A stretch of DNA of 64,000 bases from assembly GCF_009931435.1 (NCBI RefSeq), contig NZ_CP043414.1; one strand, given 5' to 3'. The number at the start of each line of letters is the position of its first letter. Within the stretch, counting starts at the first letter, position 1. This stretch comes from Escherichia coli (GTDB taxonomy: Bacteria > Pseudomonadota > Gammaproteobacteria > Enterobacterales > Enterobacteriaceae). The notes below the pieces were generated by a model. That model was not told where the DNA came from and searched no databases. It was given only the letters and a program-made list of their open reading frames with translations. Below, piece after piece: positions 5,507 through 45,017 of the stretch. A program made the translations under genes and the position numbers.

Positions 5507-6235
5507 ATGACTCATGTCTGCTCGGTGATCCTCGTTCGTCGTTCATTGGATATTCATCATGAACAGCAAAAAATATCGTTGCACAACGAAAGTATTCTAC
5601 TGCTGGATAAAAATTTGGCAGATGATTTTGCGTTTTGTTCACCGGATACGCGACGGCTGGATATCGATGAGCTGACAATTTGCCATTACTTACAAAATAT
5701 TCGTCAGCTACCACGCAATTTAGGGTTACATAGCAAAGACCGTTTGTTAATTAACCAGTCCCCCCCCATGCCTCTGGTGACGGCGATTTTTGATAGTTTC
5801 AATGAATCCGGGGTAAATTCGCCGATAATGAGCAAGATGCTTTACCTTTCCTGTTTATCAATGTTTTCTCATAAGAAAGAACTTATCCCCTTACTTTTCA
5901 ATAGTATCAGTACTGTTTCAGGAAAAGTTGAACGCCTTATTAGCTTTGATATCGCTAAACGTTGGTATCTACGCGATATCGCGGAAAGAATGTATACCAG
6001 CGAGAGTCTCATCAAAAAAAAGTTGCAGGATGAAAATACCTGTTTCAGTAAAATATTACTCGCCTCCAGGATGTCGATGGCCAGACGATTACTCGAGTTA
6101 CGTCAAATTCCTCTACATACTATTGCAGAAAAATGTGGGTATAGCAGTACGTCGTACTTTATAAACACATTTCGACAATATTATGGTGTAACGCCACATC
6201 AGTTTGCGCAACATTCTCCGGGTACCTTCTCCTGA
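5507..6235 (+). CDS. gadW: AraC-family regulator GadW
   Basis: 242 aa AraC-type regulator, paralogous to gadX, at the expected position. Confidence 0.9.
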   Translation: MTHVCSVILVRRSLDIHHEQQKISLHNESILLLDKNLADDFAFCSPDTRRLDIDELTICHYLQNIRQLPRNLGLHSKDRLLINQSPPMPLVTAIFDSFNESGVNSPIMSKMLYLSCLSMFSHKKELIPLLFNSISTVSGKVERLISFDIAKRWYLRDIAERMYTSESLIKKKLQDENTCFSKILLASRMSMARRLLELRQIPLHTIAEKCGYSSTSYFINTFRQYYGVTPHQFAQHSPGTFS

Positions 6236-6597
6236 CCTATTTCGTATTTGAATATTGGTCAGGATCTCGCACCTGCTTCATGTGAAACTCTTTCCTGATG
6301 ATCTCTTCCGGGCTACCGGCAAGATCTCTTTCGTAGTTAGCCAGGCGGTATAGGTATTTTCAGGAGGAAAAGACTCGGCATGTTTGGGATTATTAAGCTG
6401 ACAATTCATACGATTACGGGAATGTGGGTCAGTATTGTGCTGTTCAAATTGATGACGAATGGCTGGAGTGGCTTCTACTTTCAGTGCTGTGTACTAAGCC
6501 TGGTATTCCTGACGGTCAGCTGGTTGTTGAGTGGTGAATGGTTAGCAGGAAAGAGTAAGGCTGAACCCTCACGTTCAACCTTACTCTCATTTACACG

Positions 6598-9500
6598 TTA
6601 CGCTTTTTTAAAGCGGGCAAAGAGATGTTCCACTACAACGAAAAAGACTGGAACGAAGTAAATGGCCAGCACTGTTGCGGCAAACATCCCGCCCATCACG
6701 CCGGTACCTACCGCGTTTTGCGCGCCGGAACCGGCACCATGACTGATTACCAGCGGCAGCACGCCGAGAATAAAGGCCAGAGAGGTCATCAGGATTGGGC
6801 GTAAACGCATTCGCGCCGCTTCGATGATCGCCTCTATCGGCGTTTTCCCTTCTTTCTGCATCATCTCAACGGCAAATTCGACGATCAGGATGGCGTTCTT
6901 GGCGGAAAGCCCGATGGTAGTCAGCAAACCAACCTGGAAGTAGACGTCATTACTTAAGCCGCGCAGATCGGTGGCCAGTAATGCGCCAACGACGCCTAAC
7001 GGTACAACCAACATCACCGAGAACGGAATTGACCAGCTCTCATAAAGTGCGGCAAGGGCGAGGAACACCACGACCAGTGAAATGGCATACAGCGCGGGAG
7101 CCTGGTTTGAGGATAACGCTTCCTGATAAGACAGTCCGGTCCATGAGTAGCCGACGCCTGCCGGAAGTTTAGCGACCAGGTCTGCCATAAATTTCATGGC
7201 GTCACCGGTACTTTTCCCGGCCGCCGCTTCTCCTAAAATCTCCATTGACGGGATACCGTTGTAGCGTTCCAGTCGCGGCGAACCATAGGTCCATTCGGTA
7301 GACGAATAGGCAGAAAGCGGTGCCATCGTGCCAGAGGCGTTGCGTACATACCACTGGTTGATGTTATCCGGCAACATACGGAACGGCGTGCCTGCCTGGA
7401 CATACACTTTTTTCACCCGTCCCTGGTTGAGGAAGTCGTTCACGTAGCTGCTGCCGAAGGCGGTGGAAATTGTCTGGTTGATATCGGACAGCGCCACGCC
7501 CATTGCCTCGGCTTTCGCGGCATTGACGTTAACTTTGAACATTGGCGTATCTTCCAGGCCGTTCGGGCGTACCCCGGTAACCTGGTTCGGCGATTGCGCA
7601 GCCAGTGATAACAGCTCGTTTCGCGCCTGGGTCAGTTTTTCGTGCCCCAGGTTACCGTTGTCCAGCAGTTCCATATCAAAACCTGATGCGGTACCCAGTT
7701 CAGCCACCGCGGGTAAGTTGAACGGGAAGACGACGGCTTTATTGATACTGCTTAGCGCAATCATTGCCCGCTGAATGATCGCGGTAACTGAGTTTTCCTC
7801 GCCGACACGTTCAGACCACGGCTTGAGGCTGATAAACGCCAGACCGTTGTTTTGCCCCTGGCCACTGAAGCCAAAGCCGCCAACGGTAAACACCGACTGA
7901 ACATTATCTTTCTCTTTTGTCAGATAATAATCAGTCACCTGTTGCAGCACTTTCGTGGTGTTAACCATGGTTGCACCGGAAGGTAACTGCGCGGTGGTCA
8001 TAAATACCCCCTGATCCTCTTCTGGTAAGAAAGAGGTCGGCGTACGCAGGAACAGCACCGCCATCCCGGCGCAAATCAGCAGGTAGACCACCATGTAGCG
8101 ACCGGTACAACGCAACAGTGAGCGGGTGCTATCGGTATAGTGCTGAGTTGATTTTTCAAACAGCGTGTTGAAGCGTGCGAACAGGGCGTTAGGTTTGTGA
8201 CCGCCTTCCGGCGCGGCTTTCAGAATGGTGGCGCACAGGGCAGGGGTCAGGCTCATTGCGACAAATACTGAAAGCAGCATCGAGGAGATCAGCGTGATGG
8301 AGAACTGTCGGTAGATCTCCCCGGTTGCACCGCTCATAAAGGCCATCGGCATAAACACTGCGGAAAGCACAACGGCAATCCCGACCAGCGCACGTTGGAT
8401 CTGCCCCATGGATTTATGCGTTGCTTCCTTCGGCGGTAGCTTATCTTCCGCAATGACACGCTCGACGTTCTCCACCACCACGATGGCGTCATCCACCAAC
8501 AACCCTATCGCCAGCACCATCCCGAACATGGTGAGGGTGTTGATGGTGAAACCGACCGCCGACAAGATCGCAAACGTCCCGAGAATAACCACCGGTACGG
8601 CAATCGTCGGGATGATTGTGGCTCGGAAATTCTGCAAAAACAGATACATGACCAGGAAGACGAGGATGATAGCCTCAACCAGCGTTTTGAAAACTTCCTG
8701 AATAGAAATTTTGATAAACGGTGTGGTGTCGTAAGGATAAACCGTCTTCAGGCTTGCGGGGAAATAAGCCGATAAACGGTTCAGCTCCTCTTTCACCGCT
8801 CGCGAGGTATCCAGGGCGTTTGCTCCGGTAGCCAGTTTGATGGCGATACCGGCAGCAGGTTTGCCGTTATAGCGCGCCACGGTGGAATAATCTTCCGCCC
8901 CAAGTTCGACGCGGGCGACATCACGCAGCAGCACTTGCGAGCCATCTTGCTGAACTTTCAACAGGATTTTGCCAAATTCTTCCGGCGTTTGCAGACGCGT
9001 CTGCACAATGATCGAGGCGTTCAGTTGCTGGTCTGCCGCCTGTGGCATGCCACCCAGTTGACCACCAGAAATCTGGTTGTTTTGCACCTTAATCTGGGAA
9101 ATAACATCGGAAGGTACCAGGTTGTATTTATTGAGTTTTTGCGGGTCCAGCCAGATACGCATGGCATACTCGGAACCAAAGAGTTGTACGCTACCAACGC
9201 CCGCGGTACGGCTTAGCGGGTCTTTGATATTAGACGCTACATAGTCCGCGATATCGTACTGGTTGAGACTGCCGTTATCAGAAATGAACGCCGCTACCAT
9301 CAGGATATTACTGCTCGACTTATCGACGCTAATACCCTGCTGCTGCACCGCTTCAGGTAATGAAGGCATAGCGAGTTGCAGTTTATTTTGCACCTGAACC
9401 TGCGCGATATCAGGCGATGTCCCCGTCTCAAAGGTCAGAGTGATGGAGGCATTACCCGCCGCATCGCTGGTTGAAGACATGTACATCAGGCCATCAAGCC

Positions 9501-41669: not shown

Positions 41670-41975
41670 CCTATTACCTAAAGATGAAAATTATTAGAGC
41701 CGCATTAAAAATGAGCTAATTTTGATAGTGGCTATCTTGTGATTATTTTCTAATAAGCCCGTGAACTGAAACCCTCCATGCTTAAAATAAGGTGGGGGAA
41801 TGGTGATTAAAAATCGACCGAAGTCCAGATCTTTATAAAATATGAACAGGTTGAAAAAAGACAGTAACTTTACTGTTTTTTATACTTAACCATCAATGTT
41901 AAGTTATTTCATGATACCTAAGAAAAACCAGCGTTACGCAATTGGTCGACGCTGGTTTTATCCGGTACGTTGCAA

Positions 41976-43028
41976 TTATTTTTTAGCAGAACCTGCTTCT
42001 AATATTGAAACGATTGAGAACAACGTAAAGCATACCGCTCCCAAACCGACAAGAACCCGCGAAGGAATAAAATATCCCATGTCGGTCTGCGCCATTTCCG
42101 CAAGAAACGATGCCAGGAAAAGGCAAAACAGGCAGGTGAAGACGGGAATCATCGGAATTCTGTTGGCTAACGAACAGGTACGTCTCCAGACCAGTGCCAG
42201 TAGCCAGACTTTTGAGAATATGCTGTAACAGATCATTCCAAGGCAAATGAGAATAATGCCGGGAGCCAGCCGAGCGCTTGCATCGGAACTGACTAAGACG
42301 TATATGCCCTGCAGCACCGTGATTGAGCCGAGAAAAATAACCCAATAACACCACAGCCAGTGCTCTTTGGATGAGAACGTATTACGTGTTTGATGGACGA
42401 TTGTGGCTACAAGGCCAATGAGACAGGCACAGATTGCGGTTAACCCAAGCAATACGTGACCGGCGACATAATGTGGGGTTATGTCGGCACTGCGTAACAG
42501 CGTTATCGACCAAATGAAACCGAGCAGGGTGAGTAATACGGGAACGGCAATGAGGCAATTACCGATTAATGAAGAATAAGCCTGTACCGGCGTTCCGTCG
42601 CTTTTGCTCCCCGATGCATTTTTGGGAATGAGCAGAAAGTGACCGGATGACGCTGCCACTGTCGATACACAGGCGGCAATCATACCAACGCCGAAAATCA
42701 CATGACCGGCGACAAACTCGTCTGCCATCACATCATTGCCTGCTAACAGTGCCCAACCCCATATCATGGTGATAATTGACCCCGCATAGCCAATAATGGG
42801 GAACAGTGTATTGTAAAACGTATTAACGCCGCGCGTGAGCTGCGAAATGATAATAAATGCGGTAGTGAATAATGCCAGGCATATGGCTGCCAGAGAAATC
42901 AGCACATGACCCGCGACGAAATACTCGCTTTGCCCTGAACTTTCCAGCACAAAGCCACCTAACGCGATACAAATTAACCCCATAATCAAGGGGATTAATT
43001 TGAAAAGCCACCCGATATATATGTTCAC
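41976..43028 (-). CDS. yhiM: Inner membrane protein YhiM with four internal repeats
   Basis: About 350 aa from GTG preceded by GAGGAG (VNIYIGWLFKLIP...); four repeats each containing an (Y/F)VAGHV-like motif. Confidence 0.75.
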   Translation of the reverse strand: MNIYIGWLFKLIPLIMGLICIALGGFVLESSGQSEYFVAGHVLISLAAICLALFTTAFIIISQLTRGVNTFYNTLFPIIGYAGSIITMIWGWALLAGNDVMADEFVAGHVIFGVGMIAACVSTVAASSGHFLLIPKNASGSKSDGTPVQAYSSLIGNCLIAVPVLLTLLGFIWSITLLRSADITPHYVAGHVLLGLTAICACLIGLVATIVHQTRNTFSSKEHWLWCYWVIFLGSITVLQGIYVLVSSDASARLAPGIILICLGMICYSIFSKVWLLALVWRRTCSLANRIPMIPVFTCLFCLFLASFLAEMAQTDMGYFIPSRVLVGLGAVCFTLFSIVSILEAGSAKK

Positions 43029-43409
43029 TTTAAACTCCTCAGGTATCCCTGCTAATATCGAAATGTGCATTAATGATAATTTCAGCCTGTTAATAAAATG
43101 ACGAGATATCATTAAAGACAAATGCATAGCATAACTATAGCTGGGTTTACTTTGCCGAGTGCCACTTTTCAGCGTTCAAAAGGCCATGGTAAATAAATAT
43201 TTATCCTAAGATTAATTCTTATTCTGTAGTTCTTTACAATTATCTTCCAGGGAGGGATTATTTTTCATTATTGGTAAAAGACCGGATAGTCTCGGTGTTT
43301 AAAATCAGCGAACATATAATTATTATTGTTTTATATCGTCGTAAATATGTCTTTCAGACATGTATCGTTTATTTTGTAACAAACAATTCAAAAATATCAT
43401 AGGTTATTT

Positions 43410-45017
43410 ATGAAAGCAATTCATAATCTGATTGGAAACAACTCCTTAAGCCATGAATATAAGCATTCAGATAAAGTTAACAATCATCAACACCATGGCG
43501 AGGTTGATAAAAAACATCTTTCAAAGACAGTTGAAGTTAATATACTGGATAAATTTTCGCAAATAGGTAACAATGCAGGCCTGCATATCATCTATTTCCT
43601 GCAATATGGTCACTGGAATGTAAATGACTATTTTCATCAGACGGTGAAAACATCGCTTTACAATAGTGAACCTTCTATAGATATCCAAGAATATAATAGT
43701 TTCGCCAACATGGATACTGACACGTTTATCTTTACAATTATACCAGACAATAACCATGTGTTAAAATTATCATCTCCCATAACCGTTACGATTGAGCGTA
43801 GGGATGGTTATTATTTTATTAATTTCTCCGGAGATAAATCAGACATAATTTATAAAGTTGATGGGCTTTCTATCATATCTGAAAATTTCTTTACTCTTCT
43901 TAGCGGTAATTTTAAACCTGACTGGCGTTGGGATGTCTCTACTGAGATGCTCACTAAGGAAAAGTTTGATAACTATGTTAAATCTGTGTTTTCAGAAATA
44001 GATTTTTATAAACACTGTGGTGTGATTAACCCACAAAATATGAACACGGCTTATTTTGGCGATACAGATGGAAGAGTAGGCGCTATACTTTATGCATTGC
44101 TCGTTTCAGGGCATATAGGCATCCGGGAAGAGGGGTGGAGTTTAATATGTGAATTATTAAATCACGAAAATATGGCTTCATCTGCATACGAAAAGAAAAA
44201 AATGGGAGAGCTCTACGCTTTATTAAATGCAAGAGACATGATCTTGAATAAGTTGCATAATCATGTTTTTTTAAAAGGCGATGCGATTACTCCTTGTATT
44301 TTCCTTGGAGATCATACAGGCGACAGGTTTAGTACTATTTTTGGAGATCAATATATCCTTACTTTGCTAAATTCTATGCAAAATATGGAGGGTAATAAAG
44401 ATAGTCGTATAAATAAAAATGTCGTCGTTCTGGCTGGAAATCATGAAATCAATTTTAATGGTAACTATAGTGCACGACTAGCAAATCATAGACTCTCCGC
44501 CGGTGATACATATAACTTAATTAAAACGCTTGATGTTTGTAATTATGACCCAGAAAGGAAAGTTTTAACCAGTCATCACGGAATAATAAGAAATGAAGAA
44601 AGTAAATGTTATTGTCTCGGTGCTTTGCAGGTTCCATTTAAACAGATGAAAAATCCTACTGATCCTGAGGAATTAGCTAATATATTTAATAAAAAACATA
44701 AAGAACATATGGATGATCCTCTATTCCATCTAATCCGAAGCAATATTATGAAACCCACAGATTTATATGCTGATTATTTTAATAACACTACTGATTTCAG
44801 ACCAGCACGTAAACATATCTTCATATGTGGAGAGAAACTCAAATGTGAAGACCCCAGAAAATACATTAGACAAAAATATGGCCATCATGGGCTCGGGGTA
44901 GATCAGAATCAACAATTTGATAATGGTATTATGGGCCTAAATTCCCGGAAGAAAGTACGTGATAAAAATAATGAAATAATTTATTTATCAGGGCTTAGTT
45001 GTTTTCAATCTCATTAA
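43410..45017 (+). CDS. yhiL: YhiL-like protein with PPP-type metallophosphatase motifs
   Basis: 535 aa, AT-rich. Motifs in order: GDTDG (nt 44058-44072), GDHTGDR (44307-44327), GNHE (44436-44447), HHG (44574-44582). Tandem paralog of the next gene. Confidence 0.7.
   Translation: MKAIHNLIGNNSLSHEYKHSDKVNNHQHHGEVDKKHLSKTVEVNILDKFSQIGNNAGLHIIYFLQYGHWNVNDYFHQTVKTSLYNSEPSIDIQEYNSFANMDTDTFIFTIIPDNNHVLKLSSPITVTIERRDGYYFINFSGDKSDIIYKVDGLSIISENFFTLLSGNFKPDWRWDVSTEMLTKEKFDNYVKSVFSEIDFYKHCGVINPQNMNTAYFGDTDGRVGAILYALLVSGHIGIREEGWSLICELLNHENMASSAYEKKKMGELYALLNARDMILNKLHNHVFLKGDAITPCIFLGDHTGDRFSTIFGDQYILTLLNSMQNMEGNKDSRINKNVVVLAGNHEINFNGNYSARLANHRLSAGDTYNLIKTLDVCNYDPERKVLTSHHGIIRNEESKCYCLGALQVPFKQMKNPTDPEELANIFNKKHKEHMDDPLFHLIRSNIMKPTDLYADYFNNTTDFRPARKHIFICGEKLKCEDPRKYIRQKYGHHGLGVDQNQQFDNGIMGLNSRKKVRDKNNEIIYLSGLSCFQSH

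Follow-up and report, generated by a model that had tools for sequence, protein, structure and literature searches.

What sort of membrane protein is YhiM, and what can the way it is built tell us about what it does? The question is raised by a gene at positions 41976..43028 (minus strand, as for all positions below unless stated otherwise) of a 64,000-nucleotide stretch of Escherichia coli DNA (contig NZ_CP043414.1, assembly GCF_009931435.1), referred to here as the window, which on the basis of its sequence is yhiM. YhiM is a still poorly understood inner-membrane protein of E. coli, and the phenotypes attributed to it, including acid survival, growth at high temperature and low osmolarity, export of gamma-aminobutyric acid (GABA), and copper resistance through the Cpx system, are scattered and partly contradictory. 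A first-pass annotation of the window, made from the letters alone, had described the protein as four tandem repeats of about 80 amino acids (aa). Here, we find it practically certain that YhiM consists of five tandem two-helix hairpins of approximately 70 aa each, all in the same orientation, which would have arisen by an ancient intragenic amplification of one unit with two transmembrane helices (TM). Taken together with the assignment of the even-numbered helices to an inner ring and with a function as a conduit, and with the architecture weighted most, this overall reading has in our estimation a probability of about 0.75.

The open reading frame comprises 351 codons, from a GTG start at 43028 to a TAA stop at 41976-41978, and encodes a product of 350 aa; the identical 1053-nucleotide (nt) coding sequence is annotated by RefSeq. 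The protein matches the Pfam family DUF2776 (PF10951) over profile positions 1-347 of 348 (E = 1.5e-158, 528 bits against a cut-off of 26.1), and 348 of its 350 residues are identical to those of YhiM from E. coli K-12 (b3491, UniProt P37630), with two conservative differences (A139S and T220S). This full-length match and the near-identity to K-12 confirm the name given in the first-pass annotation, whose coordinates were also correct. NCBIfam holds no model for the 350-aa product. The coding sequence differs from that of K-12 at 37 nucleotides, and the affected codons are synonymous in 34 cases and non-synonymous in two, which points to strongly purifying selection.

The five units were cut at aa 1-67, 68-137, 146-217, 218-283, and 284-350. 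Unit 1 (42828..43028) contains TM1 and TM2 (model helices 3-30 and 34-65) and the motif YFVAGHVLISLAAIC, and unit 2 (42618..42827) contains TM3 and TM4 (helices 70-95 and 102-130) and the motif EFVAGHVIFGVGMIAAC. A cytoplasmic linker (aa 138-145, 42594..42617), which is the least conserved stretch and the place of an insertion in one homologue, leads to unit 3 (42378..42593), with TM5 and TM6 (helices 153-179 and 184-214) and the motif HYVAGHVLLGLTAIC. Unit 4 (42180..42377, TM7 and TM8, helices 220-247 and 251-280) and unit 5 (41979..42179, TM9 and TM10, helices 293-313 and 317-347) carry the degenerate motifs RLAPGIILICLGMIC and YFIPSRVLVGLGAVC, respectively. An exact VAGHV core is present in only three copies (aa 38-42, 106-110, and 188-192), not in every repeat as had been supposed, and the remaining two copies of the motif are degenerate (aa 254-268, LAPGIILICLGMICY, and aa 320-334, FIPSRVLVGLGAVCF); the successive motifs are spaced by 68, 82, 67, and 66 aa. 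The sole repeat at the DNA level is the 18 nt encoding the VAGHV core (42903-42920, 42699-42716, and 42453-42470), and the duplication is therefore old.

The evidence for five copies comes from comparisons of the units with one another, both in the single protein and across the family. In Smith-Waterman alignments of unit 1 with each of the other units, z scores ranged from 6.2 to 12.1 and none of 500 shuffles reached the observed score. A family profile was then available for each unit from a sample of 150 cluster representatives and 120 further relatives, and all ten pairs of unit profiles were aligned in register, eight of them with an hhalign probability above 94%. Self-alignment, which the first-pass annotation had proposed as the check on its repeats, returned significant internal repeats when applied to the family profile, in exactly four shifted registers and nothing further: a shift of one unit (aa 11-277 with 78-343, 249 columns, E = 2e-23), two units (aa 6-210 with 156-343, 187 columns, E = 2e-23), three units (aa 12-121 with 229-336, 108 columns, E = 6e-9), and four units (aa 10-60 with 292-343, 51 columns, E = 3e-8). 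Four shifted registers imply five tandem copies. All near-full-length family members contain the five units, and longer members differ only by loop insertions or C-terminal tails; the five-fold repeat is kept across the whole DUF2776 family.

Two other accounts of these similarities have to be weighed. The idea that the protein has four repeats, each some 80 aa long and bearing the complete VAGHV...AIC motif, draws on the three exact cores and the recognisable C-terminal copy, which together make four visible motifs, and on the single spacing of 82 aa. A register shifted by four units, however, cannot arise from four repeats, the ten helices make five hairpins, and the copy that had been missed, namely the degenerate unit 4 with its motif decayed to RLAPGIILICLGMIC, matches units 1-3 in register, with hhalign probabilities of 94-96%. 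Profile self-alignment rules this idea out and we give it next to no credence; what stands of the first-pass annotation is that the internal repeats are real and that internal duplication of a membrane unit has produced a pseudo-symmetric protein. Another account would attribute the apparent repeats to transmembrane composition (hydrophobic helix, loop, helix) instead of shared descent, considering that all units are hydrophobic hairpins of similar length and that plain shuffling does not keep the helix-loop-helix pattern. Controls that do keep this pattern fail to reproduce the signal: reversed unit profiles reached at most 1.5% probability, unit profiles compared with that of the TehA family or with PitA at most 0.6%, and odd against even helices at most 2.1% in all 25 comparisons. 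In addition, the same identities recur in five units and 163 sequences (Gly at register 0, Val at +2, Gly at +5, Leu at +6, and Cys at +10), and an artefact of composition is in our view hardly conceivable. Even helices aligned with even helices at a median probability of 94%, and odd with odd at a median of 23% (up to 94%); set against the values of at most 2.1% for odd-even pairs, the former indicate that the repeating unit is the hairpin and not the single helix. In a Pfam scan of each repeat unit alone, only its own place in DUF2776 was matched above the gathering scores, and the matches of single units to 2-TM families (holin Hol44, E = 0.03-0.08; DUF4079, E = 0.002) lie below those scores and are left uninterpreted.

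The register of the repeat was tabulated by aligning the five units across 163 non-redundant family members and taking the most frequent residue per unit. In the order of units 1 to 5, these residues are F, F, F/Y, I/L, F at register -3; V, V, V, A, V at -2; A, A, A, P, P at -1; G, G, G, G, A at 0; H, H, H, C/F, R at +1; V throughout at +2; S/A, G, G, G, G at +5; L, V, L, L, L at +6; I, I, I, I, V at +9; and C, A, C, C, C at +10, the Cys of unit 2 being at +12. At position +1, His is found in 81-90% of the sequences in units 1-3 (H41, H109, and H191) and Arg in 85% in unit 5 (R324). Each unit has one near-invariant Cys (C50, C120, C200, C267, and C333, 98-99%), and with C302 the near-invariant Cys residues number six, kept across very different phyla. 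On an ideal helix, the conserved Cys lies on the face opposite the conserved His. The odd helices show a weaker pattern, with a Pro about ten residues in (P13, P77, P162, and P295) and, close to the outer end, a (W)G. Candidate gating or binding sites are the periplasm-proximal His/His/His/x/Arg position and the single Cys per unit.

YhiM has ten transmembrane helices with both termini in the cytoplasm. The AlphaFold2 helices and the charge bias of the predicted segments (11 Lys plus Arg on the cytoplasmic side against three on the periplasmic side, and two Asp plus Glu against nine) agree with the published prediction, and an experimental localisation of the C-terminus to the cytoplasm has been cited (PMC11005409). 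It follows from this topology that the conserved sequence (F/Y)-V-A-G-H-V-L-x-G-L-x-A-I-C starts at the periplasmic end of each even helix. The AlphaFold2 model, built from a 77-sequence alignment, is very confident, with a pLDDT of 95.8 and a pTM of 0.94, and contains ten long helices and two short cytoplasmic ones, with periplasmic turns of 3-6 residues and cytoplasmic links of 4-22. Neither the family profile nor a single unit, searched against PDB sequences, found a solved relative, with nothing better than E = 0.4. When the model was searched with Foldseek, the designed barrels sc-CC-6, sc-CC-7, and sc-CC-8 came out on top with TM-scores of approximately 0.45-0.5. The designers of these sc-CC barrels had themselves retrieved the AlphaFold model of YhiM, which they described as "based on five central helices" and as most resembling their own parallel barrels, and their supplementary tables list Mae1-type proteins and Haemophilus influenzae TehA from the same searches (2024, PMC11288890). 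The predicted model is similar to closed alpha/alpha toroids and, as far as natural proteins go, to the two-layer fold of five hairpins seen in TehA/SLAC1, and the hairpins are predicted to close into a ring of that kind.

Which helices would line such a ring? The even helices are the more conserved (mean column information of 2.72 bits versus 2.27 bits for the odd helices, Mann-Whitney p = 2e-6). Their conservation moments of 0.09-0.17 indicate conservation on all faces, compared with moments of 0.35-0.40 for TM1, TM3, TM5, and TM7, which are conserved on one face, and in the register table tryptophan is almost confined to the odd helices. For these reasons, TM2, TM4, TM6, TM8, and TM10 probably form an inner parallel barrel, and the Trp-rich odd helices would then form a lipid-facing outer ring. 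A direct-coupling analysis of the 163 sequences (effective number of sequences, Neff, approximately 73) was also applied to the question of the inner helices; with too few sequences to settle it, the highest scores were artefactual, arising from conserved columns in TM10, and the result was discarded.

The architecture also bears on the type of protein that might be expected. The first-pass annotation had suggested a transporter-like or sensor fold; an inverted-repeat transporter has an even number of units in opposite orientations, and YhiM has five parallel units that all start from the cytoplasm, so that the inverted repeat of an alternating-access carrier is absent; the predicted fold is a closed two-layer ring like those of TehA/SLAC1 channels and designed alpha-helical barrels. 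Given the lack of an inverted repeat, and given that natural proteins of this fold are only channels or facilitators, the YhiM ring would serve a small solute or ion as a channel-like conduit and would not be an alternating-access carrier. Expression of yhiM in E. coli rises in acid stationary phase in a partly GadE- and GadX-dependent manner, deletion of the gene reduces GABA export at pH 5 by approximately 50%, and its overexpression raises that export (PMC6604978). A phenotype in growth at high temperature and low osmolarity is named in the title of a further paper.

DUF2776 is small and patchy, with 257 clusters at 50% identity in 1.8 billion proteins and members in 204 stretches of approximately 100,000 species genomes, and it occurs in Proteobacteria, Actinomycetes, Clostridia, Bacteroidales, Desulfovibrionaceae, and two Methanomassiliicoccus genome bins. 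The homologues in these two archaeal bins from the gut (L072 and L076, positions 6001-7041) are full length with 48% identity, and they reflect either horizontal transfer from gut bacteria or contigs misassigned to the bins. Clustering of open reading frames at 79 loci showed that yhiM homologues usually stand alone and that their neighbours are lineage-specific, for example pentose-phosphate genes in Bacteroides and an ABC transporter in Escherichia; no conserved operon partner was found among these loci. Glutamate decarboxylase is the exception: in Cellulomonas denverensis, Paraclostridium dentum, and [Eubacterium] tenue (L056 2878-7044, L079 12-2849, and L043 10-1562, respectively), the yhiM homologue has a co-directional gadB gene directly upstream. 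In C. denverensis the order is gadB, a gadC-like gene, and the yhiM homologue, and in P. dentum gadB-like sequence is present on both sides of the homologue. A Clostridium perfringens homologue had previously been noted between gadC and gadB (PMC6604978). It is the GABA-export phenotype together with this recurrent adjacency to gadB that would tie the conduit to the glutamate decarboxylase/GABA system. That YhiM is a channel-like conduit linked to GABA/glutamate metabolism is a tentative proposal, to which we assign slightly less than even odds.

Several observations weigh against the reading favoured here. The fraction of small residues does not differ significantly between even and odd helices (p = 0.10), TM9 lacks the conservation pattern of an outer helix, and gad genes are neighbours at only three of the 79 surveyed loci. 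The acid-resistance phenotypes are contradictory between laboratories, and acid survival was not reproduced. Barrels of five helices can be too narrow even for small dyes (PMC11288890). In addition, the copper phenotype is strain-specific and acts via CpxAR: loss of yhiM in uropathogenic strain CFT073 activates CpxAR and leads to higher copper resistance, whereas a K-12 mutant has no such phenotype, which is no less compatible with a regulatory role than with a pore (PMC11005409).

The main rival to a conduit follows from these last points, namely that YhiM is a compact, non-conducting scaffold or sensor that restrains CpxA/CpxR, with the effects on GABA and metals being indirect. Deletion in CFT073 activates Cpx constitutively, the copper resistance of the mutant needs both cpxA and cpxR, the yhiM promoter is bound by CpxR, and the mutant retains copper import (PMC11005409); that five-helix barrels can be too narrow for cargo and that no conserved operon partner was found also speak for a scaffold. 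Such a role is harder to reconcile with the rise in GABA export on overexpression and with the fact that the only natural proteins of this fold are channels or transporters. Moreover, the family is found in Actinomycetes, Clostridia, Bacteroidales, Desulfovibrionaceae, and Methanomassiliicoccus bins, in which, to our knowledge, no Cpx system is known. We regard the scaffold as rather unlikely, though deserving of serious attention. Copper enters in another way if the His ring and the single Cys per repeat are taken as a thiophilic path for Cu(I), which would make YhiM a copper-permeable channel. The high conservation of these residues (98-99% for the five Cys, 81-90% for His in units 1-3) is in keeping with such a path, as are the origin of yhiM in a screen for copper importers and the lower copper content of the mutant (PMC11005409). 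Yet Cys +10 and His +1 are on opposite faces of an ideal helix, the Cys of unit 2 is at +12, no copper phenotype results from deletion in K-12, and the effect depends on Cpx, acting through induction of copA; the odds of a dedicated copper channel are accordingly poor. A bolder picture combines several of these elements in a natural single-chain "pentamer", a five-fold pseudo-symmetric parallel alpha-helical barrel with the outer helix first, of an origin independent of TehA/SLAC1 and gated by acid or metal, whose axial pore, with a periplasm-proximal ring of three His and an Arg and with a near-invariant Cys in each repeat, would pass GABA, protons, or Cu(I). We consider it improbable in this complete form; if true, a gated pore of this kind could explain the scattered acid, osmotic, copper, and Cpx phenotypes.

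The start of the gene deserves separate mention. The longest open reading frame in the same frame begins with ATG at 43127 and would encode 383 aa, and the first-pass annotation had preferred GTG at 43028 with its strong GAGGAG site. That choice proved right: the RefSeq coding sequence begins there, the N-termini of homologues from many phyla (MN..IS..) coincide with it, and the transcription start mapped in K-12 agrees. The point had already been published in 2017. Tramonti et al. (2017, PMC6604978) described the GAGGAG-N6 site of yhiM in K-12, corresponding here to a Shine-Dalgarno sequence at 43035..43040, 6 nt before GTG, and, by primer extension in MC4100 and MG1655, placed the 5' end of the transcript at an A 22 nt upstream of GTG. 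Transferred by alignment, this A is at 43050, and the upstream in-frame ATG codons at 43127 and 43070 are therefore outside the mRNA. The promoter hexamers equivalent to those of K-12 (43057..43085) each differ from it by one base, with a -35 of CTGAAA at 43080-43085 (ATGAAA in K-12) and a -10 of TTCGAT at 43057-43062 (TTCAAT in K-12), which lowers the match to TATAAT from four to three of six positions. Past the stop codon, a terminator-like stem-loop followed by a T run (41922..41959, centred approximately 35 nt beyond the stop, RNA fold of -20.2 kcal/mol, z = -3.3) is the same element that has been proposed for K-12 (PMC6604978). A general promoter and terminator scan did not recover the published promoter and missed the terminator, whose loop is long.

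A uropathogenic-type allele of yhiM (P0152; L011 520-560, aligned to window positions 43026-43045) is 91% identical and has 2301 member sequences, and its promoter region is unrelated to that of the K-12 type. Its annotated start, MGFKM-NIY, is the "MXXXM copper motif" of a 2024 mBio paper. The first ATG of this allele overlaps the position of the K-12 Shine-Dalgarno sequence (ATGGGGTTTAAAATG versus GAGGAGTTTAAAGTG), and the second is the equivalent of the K-12 GTG and of all homologue N-termini. Judging from this alignment, the upstream ATG may go unused and the motif may be absent from the uropathogenic protein, and what was reported as an XXXM deletion may instead have taken out the ribosome-binding region, in line with its partial phenotype. 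As a practical by-product, the "MXXXM copper motif" of uropathogenic YhiM can be said to hinge on the upstream ATG.

In the window, yhiM is flanked by yhiN/pitA on one side and DUF4049 genes on the other, as in RefSeq genomes. The yhiN-pitA synteny, the GTG start, the Shine-Dalgarno sequence, and the terminator are shared with K-12, and the differences from K-12 are the two substitutions, the 34 synonymous codon changes, and the single base in each promoter hexamer. Two intact DUF4049 paralogues of 535 and 540 aa (43410-45017 and 45279-46901, both on the plus strand) are divergent from yhiM, and the first of them (yhiL) is a pseudogene in K-12. The intergenic flanks of yhiM are 91-94% identical to K-12. 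Of 5426 complete E. coli genomes, only seven match the 1.7-kb region at 41700-43400 with at least 99% identity, and 4214 do so with 90-95%; despite this divergence at the DNA level, the YhiM protein is only two residues away from that of K-12.

The yhiM gene, the DUF2776 family, the start site, and the resemblance of the model to a five-helix barrel were already known. The searchable literature yielded no description of a five-fold sequence repeat, of the His/Arg position, or of a Cys in each unit, and these features, as well as an even-helix inner ring that is the reverse of SLAC1, appear to be new. They are modest additions that make YhiM easier to test, considering that five copies of a hairpin reduce the problem to one 70-residue unit, that residues can be named for mutation (H41, H109, H191, and R324; C50, C120, C200, C267, and C333), and that the repeat architecture points to channel-type instead of carrier-type assays.

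Among natural proteins, TehA, SLAC1, SLAH, and Mae1 (PF03595, the TDT family) offer the closest comparison, and the predicted model of YhiM shares their five tandem hairpins, arranged as two layers of quasi-five-fold symmetry. SLAC1 consists of five helical hairpins, with the pore formed by the odd helices (PMC11260165), and its quasi-five-fold arrangement has short outer loops and longer inner ones (PMC3172217); the YhiM model has the same loop pattern (short periplasmic and longer cytoplasmic). In contrast to SLAC1, the inner ring of YhiM would consist of the even helices, and YhiM keeps an obvious sequence repeat and has no detectable sequence relationship to TehA/SLAC1. Swapped layers and the lack of sequence similarity together suggest either an independent origin or a permutation. 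Could YhiM nevertheless be a very divergent, possibly circularly permuted member of the TDT family and not an independent invention? The shared fold invites the question, and the answer is probably negative, given that PF03595 showed no Pfam match to YhiM even at E = 1, that hhalign comparisons of the DUF2776 profile with TehA and with a TehA alignment gave 0.2% probability (a weak test, as the TehA profile is shallow with members more than 80% identical), and that the putative inner rings are even and odd, respectively; membership thus seems distinctly improbable. If the helix order is truly reversed with respect to SLAC1, YhiM would represent a second, independent route to a five-hairpin membrane fold.

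The designed barrels sc-CC-5, sc-CC-6, sc-CC-7, and sc-CC-8 (PDB 8qkd, 8qag, 8qai, and 8qah) and the toroids dTor_9x57R (6xr1) and MC7BP34 (8u1a) are soluble proteins with 5-9 repeats and no homology to YhiM, which, as a natural membrane protein, is a rare natural counterpart of designed alpha-helical barrels. A further comparison is with MscL and CorA, homopentameric channels of 2-TM subunits in which hairpins of the same orientation surround a central axis. No sequence or fold match to either turned up in the PDB sequence and Foldseek searches with YhiM, their subunits are separate chains, and in MscL the first helix lines the pore. With its five parallel two-helix hairpins, YhiM looks like a single-chain version of such a channel.

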